4,829 nt of DNA from a virus (lineage: Duplodnaviria > Heunggongvirae > Uroviricota > Caudoviricetes), in the IMG/VR virus record IMGVR_UViG_2579778982_000027. One strand, 5' to 3'. The notes under the pieces were generated by a model. It was not told the DNA's origin. It did not search any database and saw only the letters and a list, made by a program, of their open reading frames with translations. The position numbers and the translations under genes are program-made. This document shows, in pieces, positions 1-4,829 of the stretch (position 1 is its first letter; every line of letters starts with the position of its first letter).

Positions 1-13
1 TTTCATACGATAG

Positions 14-45
14 TGTCCATTAAAAATGATGGACATTATTTTTGT
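14..45 (+). terminator. Candidate rho-independent terminator for plus-strand transcription entering from the left
   Basis: Perfect 7-bp inverted repeat TGTCCAT (14-20) / ATGGACA (29-35) with an 8-nt loop, followed on the plus strand by TTATTTTTGT (36-45). Stem is short and AT-rich, so weak. Confidence 0.3.
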
Positions 46-85
46 AGAGCCGGAGGAAACAGACCAGACGGTTTAAATGAGCCGG

Positions 86-190
86 TTACTCTAATGCATC
101 AGCAGGCCATGTTCCATTTACTTCATAAGTGTTTTTTAAATTAACAGCATAAAAAGCATTTTCCGAAGGGGAATAAATATATTGATTCAT
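86..190 (-). pseudogene. Tail-fibre assembly protein (Tfa) N-terminal stub, truncated after 34 codons
   Basis: Hand translation from ATG at 190-188 gives MNQYIYSPSENAFYAVNLKNTYEVNGTWPADALE, then TAA at 88-86. The FYS..NAFY...L...YE..G.WP.DA.E pattern matches the N-terminus of phage Tfa chaperones as I recall them (normally about 180-200 aa). None of the three downstream frames continues a Tfa-like sequence. Confidence 0.5.
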
Positions 191-191
191 A

Positions 192-581
192 TTATCTTCC
201 TATTGCGATAATCATAGTTCCATACAAACCATTTCCGGTTGATACTTTTAAGGTTACTGATGTCCTTGTTGTCGTGTACCCCATAAGTTTAAAGGTCGGA
301 GCAGCGGTTAATGAGCCATCTGACCATAAGGCACTAACAGCCAGTGCGCCTGAAGGAAATGCAATAGGGAAATTACCTGTAGTTCCGTTAGTGTCCGCCC
401 CATAAACATTCATCGAAAACATTTGGACAATATGACCACTTGGTAACTGAAACCAGTTTTTGCCAGATGGAAATGCAGACATATCTGGTATCTGATTTTC
501 CCCTGTTCCCACATTCCGTTTTGCCGCTTCTCCCAAACCAACGTTTAAGAAAATGCAGAGATTACGGCTAACTGGCATCAT
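192..581 (-). CDS. Phage tail-fibre protein, C-terminal variable (receptor-binding) domain fragment
   Basis: 129-aa ORF whose N-terminus carries LNVGLGEAAKRNVGTGENQIPDMSAF, the conserved constant/variable junction motif of side tail fibres in Mu/P1/e14-type invertible systems (from memory). Its 5' end faces the invertase start, as stfE faces pinE in e14. An in-frame TAA (591-593) lies just upstream, so no constant N-terminal fibre portion is attached in this orientation. Confidence 0.6.
   Translation of the reverse strand: MMPVSRNLCIFLNVGLGEAAKRNVGTGENQIPDMSAFPSGKNWFQLPSGHIVQMFSMNVYGADTNGTTGNFPIAFPSGALAVSALWSDGSLTAAPTFKLMGYTTTRTSVTLKVSTGNGLYGTMIIAIGR
528..553. other. Candidate hix/gix/cix-like 26-bp crossover site for the invertase
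   Basis: TTCTCCCAAACC-AA-CGTTTAAGAAAA: two imperfectly inverted 12-bp half-sites around a 2-bp core, with the AAACC/NN/GTTT centre typical of Hin-family sites (consensus half-site roughly TTATCAAAAACC). It lies in the codons for the junction motif (IFLNVGLGE), 55 bp before the invertase ATG. Match to consensus is partial, about 10/12 and 8/12 per half. Confidence 0.3.
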
Positions 582-608
582 CCCCGGTTTTTATTCAGGG
601 GATCCATC

Positions 609-1208
609 ATGCTTATTGGCTATGTCCGCGTATCAACAAATGACCAGAATACAGAATTGCAGCGTAACGCGCTGGAGTGCGCAGGATGTGAACTGATTTT
701 TGAAGATAAAATCAGCGGAACGAAATCAGCCAGACCGGGATTGAAAAAACTGCTCAGAACGCTATCAGAAGGAGATACGCTGGTTGTCTGGAAGCTGGAC
801 AGACTGGGCAGAAGTATGAAACACCTGATCACGCTTATTGAGGAATTGCGGGAAAAAGGTGTTAATTTCCGTAGTCTGACGGACAGCATTGACACATCAA
901 CACCCATGGGGCGTTTCTTTTTTCACGTCATGGGAGCTTTAGCCGAAATGGAACGTGAATTAATTGTAGAGCGTACACTGGCCGGGCTGGCAGCAGCACG
1001 CGCACAAGGACGCATTGGCGGACGTCGCCCGAAGTTGACAAAAGAACAACACGAGCAAATAGCGAGGCTGATTAAAAACGGTCATGACAGGAAACAACTG
1101 GCGATCATTTACGACATCGGCATATCGACGATTTATCGTTATCACCCTGTAGGCGATATACAGGCTGAAGAAACAATCAGGCAGATTCAGGAAAATGAAA
1201 ACCGCTAA
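609..1208 (+). CDS. Serine site-specific DNA invertase, Hin/Gin/Pin/Cin family
   Basis: 199-aa ORF with family hallmarks: MLIGYVRVSTNDQ (catalytic Ser in VRVST), LVVWKLDRLGRS, SLTDSIDTS, MGRFFFHVMGALAEMERELIVERT, GRIGGRRPKL and a C-terminal HTH (LAIIYDIGISTIYRY). Closely resembles Pin/Gin as I recall them. SD-like AGGGGA sits 6 nt before the ATG. Appears intact. Confidence 0.95.
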   Translation: MLIGYVRVSTNDQNTELQRNALECAGCELIFEDKISGTKSARPGLKKLLRTLSEGDTLVVWKLDRLGRSMKHLITLIEELREKGVNFRSLTDSIDTSTPMGRFFFHVMGALAEMERELIVERTLAGLAAARAQGRIGGRRPKLTKEQHEQIARLIKNGHDRKQLAIIYDIGISTIYRYHPVGDIQAEETIRQIQENENR

Positions 1209-1230
1209 TCTGACCATTAGCGGTTTTGCG
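1197..1230. terminator. Bidirectional rho-independent terminator between the convergent invertase and U genes
   Basis: Perfect 11-bp inverted repeat AAACCGCTAAT (1199-1209) / ATTAGCGGTTT (1216-1226) with a 6-nt loop CTGACC. T-run follows on the plus strand (GGTTTTG) and an A/T-rich run on the minus-strand side (TTTCATTTTC). It overlaps the invertase stop codon (1206-1208) and lies just 3' of the U stop (1235-1237). Confidence 0.6.
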
Positions 1231-1234
1231 TTAA

Positions 1235-1729
1235 TCAAAACAGCCCTTTAACGGAGCTGGCCGCGCTGTTAAGGGATGATGTGACCTTATCTTTGAAGCC
1301 GGACAGCATATCACTGAACGATGAGGATTGCAGGCGCTCCCGCAAATCCTCATCACAGCGTTCAAGAGTCAGTGAAAATTCTATCTTTTTCGCCTTACCG
1401 TAGCGATCAAACTCGGAGCGGGTCGTATTCGTTTCAGTCAGTACATACATGCCGTAAATCTGTCCGACGCCATCAATCAGAGGCCAGGGGCGTCCTGTAT
1501 ACGCCTGCGTGGTCAGCAGCGACAGCGACACTTCGCCACCTGTGATTTCAGGATAAAGCACACCAGAAAGCACGATGCGATCATCGCCTGCCCCGATATA
1601 CTGCCAGCTTGCTGAACGGTTAACGCGTTCATTTTTCACATGCCGCCAGCTTTTATTTTGCTGTAACTGCTGATGCGGCAATGTGCGCAGCTCAAAAACA
1701 AACATGCCGTAGATCATCATCATGGCCAT
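1235..1729 (-). CDS. gpU: Phage tail protein U (P2 gpU-like)
   Basis: 164-aa ORF directly after T; start region overlaps the T stop (TGA 1736-1738) with a GGAG just upstream. N-terminus MAMMMIYGMFVFELRTLPHQQL...SWRH resembles P2 gpU as I recall it, and size is typical. True start may be one of the later in-frame ATGs (1723 or 1720), which have better spacing from GGAG. Confidence 0.8.
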   Translation of the reverse strand: MAMMMIYGMFVFELRTLPHQQLQQNKSWRHVKNERVNRSASWQYIGAGDDRIVLSGVLYPEITGGEVSLSLLTTQAYTGRPWPLIDGVGQIYGMYVLTETNTTRSEFDRYGKAKKIEFSLTLERCDEDLRERLQSSSFSDMLSGFKDKVTSSLNSAASSVKGLF

Positions 1730-1735
1730 GACTCC

Positions 1736-4579
1736 TCAATCTTTATCGTAAAAACTGCCACGTCCGGCACGGTCGCGTCGTTCCAATTCTGCCCTGACCA
1801 TTTCACCGACCAGTTTCGCCAGTTCGCGGGGATTCTGCGTAACAACGTTATGCAGATGAACATGAATTTCACCGCCAAATCCGGAGACAACAGGCTCCCG
1901 GTTACGGGAAGTTGCAGGAACTGATGCCACTGGCGATCGTATGGCCTCCGCCACCGGGCGGGAGCTGGCCGCAACAACAGGGACCAGCGCCGGAGGCAGA
2001 GGAGTCGGGACCACGGGTGTGATGTTGATTGCGGAAGCAGGCTTACTGACCTGCGCAATCTTCCGCTCCTGCCACTCCCCACGAACAGCAAGTGCGCGGG
2101 GCAGGTTCTTAAAGACAATATCGCCGGGGCCAATGCGTTTTTTCGTCTCATCAACCAGCTTACCTGTGTTATCAGCAATTTTGCTGAGTCTGCGTAGCGT
2201 ACCGGTATTGCTGTCTGTGAGCGGTTTGTTGTCTTTGGGTTTATCACCTCCGGTGCCATTGCCATTTTCCACAGGCTTCGGCGGATTGATTTTCGCCAGG
2301 TCCCCCTGAAGCAAGGCAACCTTGTCCTGAAGAATGGCCGCACGCTGTGCGTCTTCGATTTTCTTGCGCGCCCTTTCAGCTTCATCCGGAAGGACGCCAA
2401 GTTTTTCAAGTATCCACGCCAGCGTATCCAGTAGCATTTTTGCAGGCATCAGAACAAGCTGTAACGCACCGCCAAGAACGTTACCGAATATCTCGCCAGC
2501 ACTGGTACATTTATCCAGCGTTTCCTTGCTGGACTCCATCGGTGACAGCAGCGATTTAAACCAGTTAAACACCTGGCTGATCCCGCTTCCGATTGCGTCA
2601 AAAACAGGACCAAACCGTTCAAAAGTTTCGCGCAACGGGGCCAGCCTTTCCATAATCCCGCTGAACACCCCGGCAAAAAATGCCCTGATGGGATCCCAGT
2701 ATTTCCAGATAAGAACGGCAGCTCCGGCAAGCGCAGCCACGATAAGACCAACCGGACTGAACAGCGCCCCGATAGCACCCCCCAGCAAAGAAACGGAACC
2801 CGTCACCATTCCCCATAGTGCTGGCAGGAGCCTGACAGCATTCATTGATCCGGTCAGGAGGGAAAAACCAAGACGCAGTTTTGCCAGTGGGCCAGCAAGC
2901 ACACCAAGAGCAAGCGACAACGAGCCTACGGTTGCAGTCACTGCCAGCAGCGCACCGCCTGCAATCAGTAGCTGGCGCGTCAGTACAGGATGGGCCTGCG
3001 CCAGTGCCGTCACCTTTGAGACCACCCGCGTTAGCCACTGCGTGACAGAACGCAGCGGACCGTCAATCAGATCTGCAATGCGGATGCGCAACCCTTCCCA
3101 TGCACTGCCGAGTGATTTCAGATCGCCGTCAAGGTTGTTGGCCATAACCTTTGCCGTGCGCTCAGCCTCACCGCGCGCGCCTTCAAGTTCTTTTCTCAGT
3201 TTAGGTAAGGAGCCGTCACCTGCCGCATCAACGAGGGCCATAAATGATGTGAAAGCCTCTTCTCCGGCAATGTCCTTAAAGAACGATACCCGGTCAACTT
3301 CCCCGTATTTGCGGGTGGCTTTATAAAGGTCGGCCAGCAAATCCTCCATCGGGCGCATTTTGCCGTTCGCATCAGAGACGGACACGCCCAGCTCTTTCAG
3401 AGCTTCTGCCGCCGCCTTTGGCGGTGATGCCAGACGAGCCAGGCTGGCACGCATTGCCGTCCCGGCATCACTTCCCCTGATACCCATATTCGCCAGTACG
3501 CCCGCCATCGCTGCGGCCTGCTCCAGCGATATTCCCAGCTTGCCCGCCACCGGACCTGCATATTTCATGGTTTCACCCAGTGCGCGAAGGTCAGTGTTGG
3601 TACGGGTAAACGCTGCGGTAAGTGTGTCACCGACCCGGTCCATCTGGTCAGCAGAAAGGCCGAACTGCGTCAGGATATTTGAGCCAATATCCGCCGTCTC
3701 GCCGAGATCCATACCGCCAGCCGTTGCCATGCTCAGCACGCCGGGAAGCGCAGCCTGAATGGCCTGCGGAGTAAAACCAGCCATTGCAAGAAATGCCTGC
3801 CCACTGGCGGCATCGCCTGCGGTGAACTGCGTTTCAGAGCCAAGTTTTAACGCCTGCTCACGCAGCGCCTTAAACTGCGGGCTGTTTTTGTCGATTCGCG
3901 TCAGTGCCTGAACGCGGGACATCTCTTTCCCGAACCCGATCGCAGGCTGCAAAAAACGCCCGGCAGCATAGCCGCCCGCAGCTGCCGCACCAATTGCCAG
4001 CGCACCACCTGTTTTCAGTTTTCCCGCTGTTTCCTGTGCGCGCGAATACCGCTCACGCGCCCGCGTTACACGCGCAAGCGCCTGCCGTTCGCGTTCAAGC
4101 TGGTTGTTGTACTGTTCGGTGCGTCTGATGGCCTGCTGGATGGTGTTATCGCTGCCTGTCAGGGAAATGCCGTGGCGTTTCAGCTCTCCGCCAAGCTCCC
4201 GCATTTTCTGAATTTCCCGTGTGCGCGATTCATTCAGGCGTTCAAGCCGGGTGCTTAACTGCTGCATCAGCTTTTGTTGTTTTTCGCTGAGCACTGTACC
4301 CGTGCGTTGTAACTGATTAAGGGCGTTAAGCTGGCGTCGTGCTTTCACGATACCCGCATCCGCTTTACTGACAGCGTCGCGGGCGCGCTCAAATGAACGC
4401 GCCTGACGCTCGAGATTTTTGATCGCCCCCTGCGTTCGCTGGATGGAGTCACCAAACTGCCCCATCAGGCGGCGTGCGTTTTCTGCAGGTCGGGTCAGCC
4501 TGTCAACGGCGCTGAAAGCGACCCGGATATCAAGAGTCTTCATTGTCTGCATTCCCGCTGCGAAGTGCCGCCCGCTCAC
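1736..4579 (-). CDS. gpT: Phage tail tape-measure protein (P2 gpT-like)
   Basis: Single long ORF (947 codons from GTG at 4579). Coiled-coil-rich charged N-terminal third, a central TQFTAGDAASGQAFLAMAGF-type tape-measure core, long Gly/Ala/Leu hydrophobic segments around residues 530-630, and position between chaperone E/E' and U. The first codon is GTG; in-frame ATGs at 4552 and 4543, the latter with GGGA about 9 nt upstream, make 1736..4543 (935 aa) a plausible alternative. Confidence 0.9.
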   Translation of the reverse strand: MSGRHFAAGMQTMKTLDIRVAFSAVDRLTRPAENARRLMGQFGDSIQRTQGAIKNLERQARSFERARDAVSKADAGIVKARRQLNALNQLQRTGTVLSEKQQKLMQQLSTRLERLNESRTREIQKMRELGGELKRHGISLTGSDNTIQQAIRRTEQYNNQLERERQALARVTRARERYSRAQETAGKLKTGGALAIGAAAAGGYAAGRFLQPAIGFGKEMSRVQALTRIDKNSPQFKALREQALKLGSETQFTAGDAASGQAFLAMAGFTPQAIQAALPGVLSMATAGGMDLGETADIGSNILTQFGLSADQMDRVGDTLTAAFTRTNTDLRALGETMKYAGPVAGKLGISLEQAAAMAGVLANMGIRGSDAGTAMRASLARLASPPKAAAEALKELGVSVSDANGKMRPMEDLLADLYKATRKYGEVDRVSFFKDIAGEEAFTSFMALVDAAGDGSLPKLRKELEGARGEAERTAKVMANNLDGDLKSLGSAWEGLRIRIADLIDGPLRSVTQWLTRVVSKVTALAQAHPVLTRQLLIAGGALLAVTATVGSLSLALGVLAGPLAKLRLGFSLLTGSMNAVRLLPALWGMVTGSVSLLGGAIGALFSPVGLIVAALAGAAVLIWKYWDPIRAFFAGVFSGIMERLAPLRETFERFGPVFDAIGSGISQVFNWFKSLLSPMESSKETLDKCTSAGEIFGNVLGGALQLVLMPAKMLLDTLAWILEKLGVLPDEAERARKKIEDAQRAAILQDKVALLQGDLAKINPPKPVENGNGTGGDKPKDNKPLTDSNTGTLRRLSKIADNTGKLVDETKKRIGPGDIVFKNLPRALAVRGEWQERKIAQVSKPASAINITPVVPTPLPPALVPVVAASSRPVAEAIRSPVASVPATSRNREPVVSGFGGEIHVHLHNVVTQNPRELAKLVGEMVRAELERRDRAGRGSFYDKD

Positions 4580-4748
4580 GCCAGCTAACCACTTCGCCGG
4601 GCGTCATCATGAAGATTTCGGCGGGCGACCAGTTAAAAATAACGGCAATATCTGCCACAAAGTCTTCTATGTGCTCAAAGCACACAACCGTGATCAGGCT
4701 TCCGTCGCCTGTTCGTTCTTCCCGCCAGAGTCCGCACCGCTCAAAAAA
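4530..4748 (-). CDS. E' extension of tail assembly chaperone (E+E' -1 frameshift product, gpE+E'-like)
   Basis: The -1 frame relative to E stays open from the slippery site to TGA at 4532-4530 (ERCGLWREERTGDGSLITVVCFEHIEDF...NADNEDS) and overlaps the start of T, as in P2 E/E' and lambda G/GT. Stand-alone initiation at ATG 4766 is not required. Confidence 0.55.
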   Translation of the reverse strand, partial: FFERCGLWREERTGDGSLITVVCFEHIEDFVADIAVIFNWSPAEIFMMTPGEVVSWRERAALRSGNADNEDS

Positions 4749-4829
4749 TTTACGGCAACCACACATAACTGAATAAAGTCACGGGATGCCATTTTTTTGA
4801 TCGTCACTTCATCCAGTCGCGGTGATGTC
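4694..4829 (-). CDS. Tail assembly chaperone E (gpE-like), 3' portion; 5' end lies beyond the window
   Basis: Frame is open from the window edge (...TSPRLDEVTIKKMASRDFIQLCVVAVNFLSGADSGGKNEQATEA) and ends at TGA 4696-4694. It is the short ORF immediately upstream of the tape-measure gene and carries the slippery heptamer. Confidence 0.6.
   Translation of the reverse strand, partial: TSPRLDEVTIKKMASRDFIQLCVVAVNFLSGADSGGKNEQATEA
4742..4748 (-). other. Slippery heptamer T_TTT_TTG for programmed -1 ribosomal frameshift
   Basis: On the minus strand the E zero-frame reads AAT TTT TTG (plus 4750-4742). The X_XXY_YYZ heptamer TTTTTTG places the -1 frame onto GAG CGG..., which is the E' ORF. Same heptamer class as reported for the P2 FETUD operon (from memory). 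Confidence 0.55.

Follow-up and report, generated by a model that had tools for sequence, protein, structure and literature searches.

A tail operon that ends at gpU opposite a DNA invertase in a P88-like prophage contig

Genes and features of the contig

The window analysed here is an entire draft-assembly contig, JICA01000128.1 (GCA_000691105.1), 4,829 bp long. Its tail genes lie on the minus strand. The gpU gene, coding for the tail tube initiator, is a 164-aa ORF at 1235-1729 (in RefSeq it starts at 1723 and gives 162 aa) which matches Phage_P2_GpU (PF06995, 5.5e-39) over the full profile; the protein shares 46% of its residues with P2 gpU and 99-100% with U of P88 and of phage 503458. Directly upstream is the tape-measure gene T at 1736-4543 (PF10145, PhageMin_Tail, 7e-59), for which RefSeq uses the ATG at 4543, while the longest ORF, of 947 aa, begins with a GTG at 4579. 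The exact 935-aa gpT product is recorded for this contig and is 33% identical to P2 gpT. Then follow the E' reading frame at 4530-4766 (PF06528, GpE, 1.7e-12) and the 3' part of gene E at 4694-4829, which is cut by the contig end; in the prophage of Escherichia coli JP538 their counterparts are a GpE family protein (24441-24596 of that locus, L002) and an upstream tail protein (24605-24970). A TTTTTTG slippery run can be read directly at 4742-4748 in the E/E' overlap, minus strand, and by analogy with E/E' of P2 it may serve a -1 frameshift. The contig thus has the gpU, the tape measure and the E/E' overlap of a P2-type contractile tail, but not the canonical gpD (PF05954) directly after U in the same operon, which is a trait of the P2 gene order and not of the whole family.

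The U gene converges with a DNA invertase gene on the plus strand. From the stop of the invertase (TAA, 1206-1208) to that of gpU (TGA at 1235-1237, on the minus strand) there are 26 nt (1209-1234), and on this spacing the sequence and the ORF list agree with an earlier sequence-only reading. That reading had also placed a shared hairpin between the two stops. The hairpin is real, at 1198-1227, with arms AAAACCGCTAAT / ATTAGCGGTTTT forming 12 pairs around a loop of 6 and with A-run and T-run flanks, but it does not lie wholly between the stops, since the invertase stop codon is part of its left arm. The minimum free energies of the folded stretches are -16.9 (plus strand) and -17.6 kcal/mol (minus strand), and compared with shuffled sequences z is -4.2 and -3.1, respectively. 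A terminator scan accepted the hairpin on the minus strand only, with the tail CATTTTCC, where a GC-containing stem-loop is followed by a U-run as in intrinsic terminators; on the plus strand the U-run sits partly in the stem and the scan gave no entry. An identical hairpin is found 3' of U in PhiR44_2 and Chuche, both of which are without an invertase, and most of the divergent loci have a strong hairpin in this position. In P88 the hairpin is at 27555-27596. It is likely that the hairpin is the intrinsic terminator of the FI-U late operon on the minus strand, and it probably also ends the invertase transcript on the plus strand. A sigma-70 scan found no consensus promoter in the window.

The invertase (609-1208, plus strand, 199 aa) is a serine recombinase of the Gin/Pin/Cin type, with Pfam matches to Resolvase (6e-52) and HTH_7 (1e-12). 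Residues 1-184 align with the phage Mu Gin structures 4m6f and 3uj3 (E = 1.5e-91); the active-site stretch MLIGYVRVSTNDQNT lies within this alignment and the residues GYVRVSTNDQ are identical in it, in accordance with the Din-family pattern YxRVSTxxQ with the active-site Ser. The architecture is also that of the Din family, a small serine recombinase with an N-terminal catalytic domain and a C-terminal HTH.

To the left of the invertase lies a currently unexpressed alternative receptor-binding C-terminal segment of the tail fibre, H' (192-527, minus strand; Pfam Gp53-like_C, 5.5e-09), whose JP538 counterpart is annotated as a gp53-like domain protein and which belongs to an invertible segment of roughly 1.9 kb. 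A cix/gix-like crossover site, TTCTCCCAAACCAACGTTTAAGAAAA, is located at 527-553 and its inverted partner is outside the window; by analogy we take it to be a 26-bp Din-type site. The pair can be seen in JP538 as an 18-nt inverted repeat, 94% complementary, with 1,820 nt between the arms (L002 18600-18617 and 20438-20455, corresponding to window 527-544). Homology to many other prophages stops exactly at window 527, and the 26-mer occurs once in the 44.7 kb of JP538, where none is expected by chance. In another relative, L011, the H' segment has the reverse orientation and continues the reading frame of the constant part of H, the two forming a 493-aa ORF, and both orientations of the segment therefore occur among relatives, one in the window and JP538 and the other in L011. 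Inverted crossover sites flanking alternative fibre C-termini and chaperones, with the invertase just outside, are also the arrangement of Mu Gin, P1 Cin and e14 Pin; the difference is that the host element here is P2-type, not Mu or P1.

The left end of the contig (1-89, minus strand) is the terminal 89 bp of an IS66-family element, recognized by a terminal GTAA inverted-repeat end and including the first 12 codons of the element's first ORF (ATG from 36 downward). No complete E. coli genome contains a match to this stretch, and the sole match is L011 5212-5300, where a 2.7-kb element encodes HTH_Tnp_1, TnpB_IS66 (4.7e-40) and DDE_Tnp_IS66 (3.7e-103) proteins. The flanks of the element overlap by 8 bp (JP538 L002 20001-20008, window 90-97), which fits a target-site duplication, and the full L011 copy has the TnpA/TnpB/TnpC set, the 8-bp duplication and the terminal GTAA of IS66. 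Next to it, at 90-190 on the minus strand, lie the first 34 codons of G', the alternative tail-fibre assembly (chaperone) gene, which the element interrupts. The translation of this 5' fragment, MNQYIYSPSENAFYAVNLKNTYEVNGTWPADALE, ends at a stop just within the insertion sequence, and the fragment matches the beginning of the JP538 gene for the tail fiber assembly protein (L002 19658-20101) without a difference. A silent tail-fibre chaperone gene broken in this way means some decay in the source prophage, and L011, with the same insertion, has a second rearrangement, an IS-associated inversion which truncates T.

Relatives and the position of gene D

Window 90-4829 is 99.9% identical to the JP538 prophage, which is located at 546-576 kb of NZ_AP025180.1. 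Among phages, P88 (Xuanwuvirus P88, Peduoviridae) is 93.9% identical over window 598-4829, 88% of the window, and P88, Citrobacter phage Shae_phiSM (PhiSM), Xuanwuvirus P884B11, 503458 and 520873 together range from 93.7 to 93.9% nucleotide identity from 598 or 610 to 4829; phage 500465-2 is 90.1% identical over 480-4829. At least 80% of the window is carried by 616 of 5,426 complete E. coli genomes. The window is thus highly similar to and colinear with the genomes of the P88 group; the genus criterion of Xuanwuvirus is whole-genome identity, which is inapplicable to a 4.8-kb contig. The P88 group has the same order of fibre variable segment, crossover site, invertase and hairpin, with U, T and E' on the opposite strand, and differs in the variable segment, which diverges left of about 527-598, and in the C-terminus of the invertase (199 aa here, 195 in the group), while the IS66-family element in the silent chaperone gene belongs to the window copy. 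The near-identical relatives encode portal, terminase, capsid, lysis, replication, partition and integrase proteins. P88 can be induced with chemicals and is lytic on many E. coli strains (PMC6456863), and PhiSM is spontaneously active (PMC5285337).

The sequence-only reading had found no gpD in the window, and tblastn searches with D of P88 and of P2 indeed gave only noise (best E = 1.2-3.6). This absence is uninformative, because the window is the whole contig. In P88 the fibre side is H (22562-24856) and G on the plus strand, G' and H' on the minus strand and the invertase (26977-27564) on the plus strand, followed on the tail side by U (27600-28094), T, E', E, FII and FI (31991-33175), all on the minus strand, and then D on the plus strand (33333-34433). 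D of P88 has a PF05954 match (1.5e-17) and is 49% identical to P2 D (2e-121). In P88-like phages D is about 6.5 kb away and so beyond the end of the contig; in JP538 the D ORF is intact, and judging from these relatives D would be present in the source strain as well. What had been taken for a missing gene is in the relatives a gene placed beyond FI on the other strand.

The same plan was seen in six genomes, P88, JP538, PhiR44_2, Chuche, SEN4 and Kp4860-2, which all begin with V W J I H G and a variable insert, followed by U T E' E FII FI on the other strand and then D and ogr. The insert between H G and U is either G' H' and the invertase, or nothing. This flipped order was found in about 140 loci from more than 25 genera of Enterobacterales. 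In a set of 80 from IMG/VR, whose U is 99% identical or more, all loci that were long enough have ogr and D divergent from FI, the invertase is convergent with U in 61 of the 80, and in none does D follow U. Another set, of 65 species-representative loci from more than 25 genera with U 52-98% identical, showed the D/FI divergence in 58 and a convergent invertase in nine. The same method scored three outgroups as canonical, with U identities of 46-51%: P2, Dagavirus ST13-OXA48phi12.1 and a Fels-2-like element (H G G' H' invertase, then FI to D and ogr).

P2 (Peduovirus P2) has a homologous gene set, an E/E' T-run slip site and ogr adjoining D, and its late promoters are activator-dependent, with the pP/pO pair diverging around one activator site. 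Its order, H G [fun(Z)] FI FII E E' T U D ogr, is on one strand and the U stop overlaps the D start, whereas in the P88-like layout the FI-U block has the reverse orientation, a terminator closes the operon after U, and D forms a unit of its own that is read divergently; P2 also lacks an invertase. The Fels-2-like element (CP019275.1) has an invertible G'/H' segment and a Gin-type invertase between its fibre genes and sheath operon, but FI FII E T U D ogr trail the invertase on the same strand, while the invertase of the window faces the end of U. The invertase DNA of the Fels-2-like relatives is 77-83% identical, Fels-2 and SEN8 matching on the invertase only. The fibre module was said to sit where D should be; its place between G and the sheath operon is the one that it has in the Fels-2-like relatives, and what has changed direction is the sheath operon. 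SEN4 (Senquatrovirus, Salmonella) and Kp4860-2 (Reginaelenavirus, Klebsiella) share the flipped FI-U and the divergent D, but their U is only 53% and 62% identical and no invertase follows it. The gene that U directly faces there is a fibre gene, G in the case of SEN4 and H in that of Kp4860-2.

We also considered the xnp1 tailocin (xenorhabdicin) as a relative. It has a variable region between the sheath gene and an N-terminal tail-fibre fragment, a position that we read as the canonical order, and it was rejected. The Xenorhabdus loci that were found therefore look like separate prophages, not xnp1.

Explanations of the junction

We are confident that the window is an unrearranged piece of a P88-like prophage (Xuanwuvirus-type, Peduoviridae) with a conserved and ordinary layout. 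The order is conserved in working phages and D lies beyond the contig, hence the junction of U and the invertase is ordinary and no deletion scar. Among the possibilities raised from the sequence, an unfamiliar tail-module layout was the one that held, FI-FII-E-E'-T-U being flipped relative to P2, with D beyond FI on the opposite strand. The observation named beforehand as pointing to a conserved architecture, intact related phages with the invertase directly downstream of U and D elsewhere, has been made, since P88 and PhiSM are active phages.

The first alternative is a scar: D would have been lost from a decaying prophage by deletion or illegitimate recombination, which also joined the invertase and fibre module to U. 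D is missing from the window, an IS66-family element is inserted at the left end of the source element, and the relative with this insertion has the inversion in T, all of which speaks for it. Nevertheless, we find this explanation very improbable. The window is merely a 4.8-kb contig, and the same junction is present base for base, with a few percent divergence (94-99.9% identity), in complete phages that can be induced or form plaques, as well as in hundreds of E. coli genomes (the 616 mentioned above), where D is intact 157 bp beyond FI. Furthermore, the hairpin after U is alike in phages with and without an invertase.

Less probable still is an R-type tailocin locus, in which a headless phage-tail bacteriocin of the carotovoricin kind would have an invertase that switches its fibre specificity. 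A contractile-tail module does adjoin an invertase-switched fibre, and gpU has a weak match (5.6e-05) to the pyocin R2 'ripcord' PA0626, but R-type tailocins are tail clusters without head, packaging and replication genes, and the near-identical relatives have all of the non-tail genes listed above, from portal and terminase to integrase, and make infectious particles. Just as slight is the chance that FI-U is a large invertible segment flipped by the adjacent invertase, with the U/invertase adjacency as one of two programmed states: the block directly adjoins the invertase gene and a weak 19-nt inverted match (79%, pair I8) brackets the stretch from the invertase to FI in JP538, but this match is missing from P88, no copy of the crossover site is found near FI/D (with up to 3 mismatches, JP538 still gives a single hit to the 26-mer), and all of the about 140 loci of the U clade, with U identities of 52-100%, have one and the same orientation.

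The FI/D spacer and the flipped tail operon

For the conserved P88-like layout the following picture can be drawn. In the P88-like lineage FI-FII-E-E'-T-U is read from the strand opposite the baseplate and fibre operon V-W-J-I-H-G, and U is therefore the last gene of its operon, its 3' end facing the 3' end of whatever comes after G. In the window this is the Gin-type invertase serving the invertible tail-fibre segment, and both convergent transcription units probably end at the single A/T-flanked hairpin. D has not been lost; it has kept its P2-like place by ogr, on the strand opposite to FI and just past the start of that gene. It would most likely be driven by its own late promoter, with a single Ogr-type dyad shared with the FI promoter, an arrangement resembling the divergent pP/pO pair of P2.

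FI and D are read divergently from a spacer of 127-198 bp (64 loci), and an alignment of 60 distinct FI/D spacers gave one conserved dyad, T(G/C)T-N12-ACAAC. P88 has only three copies of the motif, one between FI and D (33255-33272), one between P and O (14216) and one within the T gene, and in SEN4 it was found at 20788 (FI/D) and 3037 (P/O). The genome-wide count is not above chance, 3 found as compared to 2.1 expected, and what speaks for the dyad is solely its placement and its conservation in the alignment. The annotation of P2 has a single activator site for the divergent pP/pO. The activator consensus of P2 was taken as TGT-N12-ACA; as a search motif it was dropped, a strict scan having missed the annotated sites of P2 itself. 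Because the same motif lies between the divergent P and O genes of P88, the dyad suggests a late-activator site shared by FI and D in the same way as in P/O.

A search around FI-U for sequences by which the block might have been flipped, either long inverted repeats or further crossover sites, gave only short matches at chance level. No description of the flipped tail operon or of its regulation was found in the papers searched on Xuanwuvirus, P88, SEN4, xenorhabdicin and P2-like phages, surveys from 2026 among them. It is about evenly balanced, in our view, whether the in-place flip of FI-U was a single old event that defines a large P2-like clade with rewired late regulation. If it was, the clade would comprise at least Xuanwuvirus, Senquatrovirus and Reginaelenavirus and prophages in more than 25 genera of Enterobacterales. 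The flip would then have broken the link between D and U, whose start and stop, respectively, overlap in P2, and would have created a second bidirectional late promoter, with one Ogr dyad driving FI-U and D in opposite directions.

The textbook order of P2, FI-FII-E-T-U-D, is not universal, and a tail operon that stops at U is therefore no evidence of decay; nor can short contigs prove that a gene is absent. The flipped layout is widespread and puts a variable insert, an invertase, a glycosyltransferase or nothing, between two convergent operon ends. It also appears to give D a promoter of its own, with an activator site common with FI, and the FI/D spacer may be an easy system in which to study a bidirectional Ogr-dependent promoter.

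Gene order around the U/invertase junction

The window was mapped from its ORF list, using sequence and Pfam. A minus-strand tail operon runs from the E' frame with part of E (4530-4829; PF06528, 1.7e-12) through the tape measure gene T (1736-4543; PF10145, 7e-59) to gpU (1235-1729; PF06995, 5.5e-39), which is 46% identical to P2 gpU. It meets a plus-strand serine DNA invertase (609-1208; Resolvase 6e-52, HTH_7 1e-12), with which phage Mu Gin aligns over residues 1-184 (E = 1.5e-91). On the far side of the invertase are a crossover site (527-553), a tail-fibre C-terminal segment, H' (192-527, minus strand; Gp53-like_C, 5.5e-09), and the first 34 codons of a tail-fibre assembly gene, G' (90-190, minus strand). 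A TTTTTTG run (4742-4748, minus strand) within the gene E / E' frame overlap is at the position expected for the -1 frameshift that gives E+E' in P2-type phages.

The stops of the invertase (1206-1208) and U (1235-1237) are 26 nt apart, as the sequence-only reading had it. The hairpin that it placed between them is real (1198-1227), but does not lie strictly between the stops, as its left arm overlaps the invertase gene and contains the invertase stop codon. It was also right that the window has no gpD: tblastn of the window with P88 D and P2 D as queries found nothing (best E = 1.2-3.6). Since the window is one whole contig, identified by an exact-product look-up (JICA01000128.1, 4,829 bp, assembly GCA_000691105.1), this absence is uninformative.

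The prophage of E. coli JP538 is 99.9% identical to the window over 90-4829, and at least 80% of the window is present in 616 of 5,426 complete E. coli genomes. Escherichia phage P88, Citrobacter phage Shae_phiSM, Xuanwuvirus P884B11, 503458 and 520873 are 93.7-93.9% identical over 598/610-4829, and phage 500465-2 90.1% over 480-4829. P88, classed as Xuanwuvirus P88 in the Peduoviridae, was recovered by chemical induction, with many E. coli strains lysed (PMC6456863), and PhiSM is a temperate, spontaneously active phage (PMC5285337). A P88-like prophage whose U matches that of E. coli at 98% identity was also seen in a contig assigned to the Gram-positive genus Vagococcus (Vagococcus sp., NZ_JBQPOM010000071.1), most likely by assembly contamination or mislabelling.

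An in-place flip of the FI-U block

In P88 the genes V W J I are followed by H (22562-24856) and G on the plus strand, G' and H' on the minus strand, and the invertase (26977-27564, plus). The tail block is all on the minus strand, from U (27600-28094) through T, E', E and FII to FI (31991-33175). Beyond FI lies a 366-aa protein (33333-34433, plus) which by homology is gpD (PF05954, 1.5e-17; 49% identical to P2 gpD, 2e-121), and tblastn places ogr after it, at about 34476 (plus), where the RefSeq annotation of P88 lacks it. JP538 repeats this order, with D beginning 157 bp from the FI start; its RefSeq start is internal (27188), and the full ORF (26879-27988) is intact. It is followed by ogr, hok and an attachment site adjoining ihfA. 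PhiR44_2 and Chuche have the P88 order too, without the invertase after U. P2, in contrast, has H G fun(Z) FI FII E E' T U D ogr on a single strand, with the U stop overlapping the D start, and a Fels-2-like element has H G G' H' invertase FI FII E E' T U D ogr. The layouts therefore differ by an in-place flip that takes in FI-U and nothing else; the fibre/invertase module and the D-ogr pair keep their positions.

We scanned IMG/VR with the window U and typed the best 80 of 481 relatives, all at least 99% identical, by tblastn against marker proteins. Among these 80, wherever a locus extends far enough, ogr and D lie on one strand and FI-FII-T-U on the other, and D after U was found in none. 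The invertase is convergent with U in 61, and the rest have fibre genes there or end soon after U. Two IMG/VR loci (L037 and L022) have a second invertase gene adjoining the first in opposite orientation, L037 also with a second tail block (T U INV INV T FII FI D); they could reflect two adjacent P88-like prophages lying back to back, or a misassembly.

A more distant set, from one genome per species, gave 65 loci with U 52-98% identical, from genera including Salmonella, Serratia, Trabulsiella, Kosakonia, Enterobacter, Pantoea, Erwinia, Symbiopectobacterium, Klebsiella, Brenneria, Providencia, Photorhabdus, Xenorhabdus, Pectobacterium, Hafnia and Edwardsiella. D and FI diverge in 58 of them, the others being truncated or remnants, and a convergent invertase follows U in 9; the scan patterns are specific to this U clade, and these counts apply within it only. 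SEN4 (Senquatrovirus, U 53%) and Kp4860-2 (Reginaelenavirus, U 62%) are flipped like the window's clade, whereas the same scoring gives the canonical order for P2, Dagavirus ST13-OXA48phi12.1 (U 51%) and the Fels-2-like element (U 48%). With only three outgroups scored, a single origin of the flip is likely.

It could be imagined that the neighbouring invertase flips FI-U as a programmed inversion, but this is unlikely, as no crossover site is found near FI/D and about 140 loci all have one orientation. The deletion or recombination scar proposed from the sequence is excluded for the junction by its conservation in active phages, and a tailocin by the head, packaging and replication genes of near-identical relatives. 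The U/invertase feature exists as described, but for this common phage group, whose members have already been sequenced and classified, it is the normal architecture. Intact relatives have the invertase directly after U and D elsewhere, the finding that the sequence-only reading named as refuting a rearrangement.

Hairpin, fibre switch and insertion sequence

The hairpin at 1198-1227 reads AAAACCGCTAAT-N6-ATTAGCGGTTTT, and the stretches containing it have energies of -16.9 (plus) and -17.6 kcal/mol (minus), with z = -4.2 and -3.1 against shuffled controls. On the minus strand it is followed by CATTTTCC and was accepted by the terminator scan; a plus-strand terminator here is absent from the scan list, the U-run lying partly within the stem. 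With its AAAA and TTTT flanks, the hairpin could terminate the invertase transcript too. In this clade the operon ends with U, and most divergent loci have a strong hairpin within about 70 nt after U, unrelated in sequence between lineages. Because the P88 group has an identical post-U hairpin with or without the invertase, we infer that it belongs mainly to the end of the tail operon. PhiR44_2 (7960-8098) retains the hairpin together with ~55 bp from the end of the invertase ORF, and Chuche (990-1098) the hairpin alone, which suggests that these phages are deletion derivatives that have lost the invertase module. A glycosyltransferase is found near the invertase position in Chuche. A second terminator-like hairpin (1241-1259, minus strand; CAGCTCCGTTAAAGGGCTG then TTTTGATTAA) lies in the last U codons, its T-run including the U stop codon; the match may be fortuitous, or the two hairpins may together form a tandem stop signal.

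The crossover sites in JP538 are an 18-nt inverted pair 1,820 nt apart, the right one corresponding to window 527-544. The H' segment is silent in the window and JP538, and in the IMG/VR relative IMGVR_UViG_2690316161_000021 (L011) it is inverted and continues the constant part of H in frame, the H'-expressed orientation, so both fibre states exist in nature.

Window 1-89 (minus strand) has no match in complete E. coli genomes and matches L011 only, at one end of a 2.7-kb element with genes for HTH_Tnp_1, TnpB_IS66 and DDE_Tnp_IS66 proteins. By this match it is the terminus of an IS66-family element, including the first 12 codons of the element's first ORF. The element breaks G' after codon 34, and its flanks overlap by 8 bp (90-97), likely a target duplication. 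The repeat is probably the reason why the draft contig stops at the left end of the window. In L011 (4757-12708) the IS borders, at its other end, on the interior of T (window-equivalent 3816), and the contig finishes in a second IS end after the 3' part of G'. The arrangement is consistent with inversion between a pair of IS copies and truncation of T, and L011 is a truly degraded copy. T of the window is intact across that point, and these signs of decay are unconnected to the U/invertase layout.

The FI/D spacer

The FI-D spacer is 127-198 bp long (64 loci). We aligned 60 distinct spacers from many genera, and they share one conserved element, the dyad T(G/C)T-N12-ACAAC, with conserved AT-containing blocks on both sides. 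It occurs mid-region in both divergent late intergenic regions, FI/D (P88 33255-33274; SEN4 20788-20807) and P/O (P88 14216-14235; SEN4 3037-3056). P88 has one other copy, inside T, and SEN4 three, none of them in these spacers; a genome-wide count in P88 gave no excess of the motif over chance. In P88 the FI/D dyad is centred about 88 bp from the start codon of FI and about 70 bp from that of D. In the P2 annotation, a single activator site serves the divergent pP/pO, lying 79 bp from the start codon of P, 95 bp from that of O and 55-56 bp from both transcription starts. From its position and conservation, the dyad is likely an activator site of Ogr type, shared by the two directions of a bidirectional late promoter.

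No description of the flipped layout, or of the apparent activator site shared by FI and D, was found in the literature searched, and these seem to be all that is mildly new. The flip would have created a second pP/pO-like bidirectional late promoter, and D would be uncoupled from U, unlike in P2 with its overlapping stop and start.
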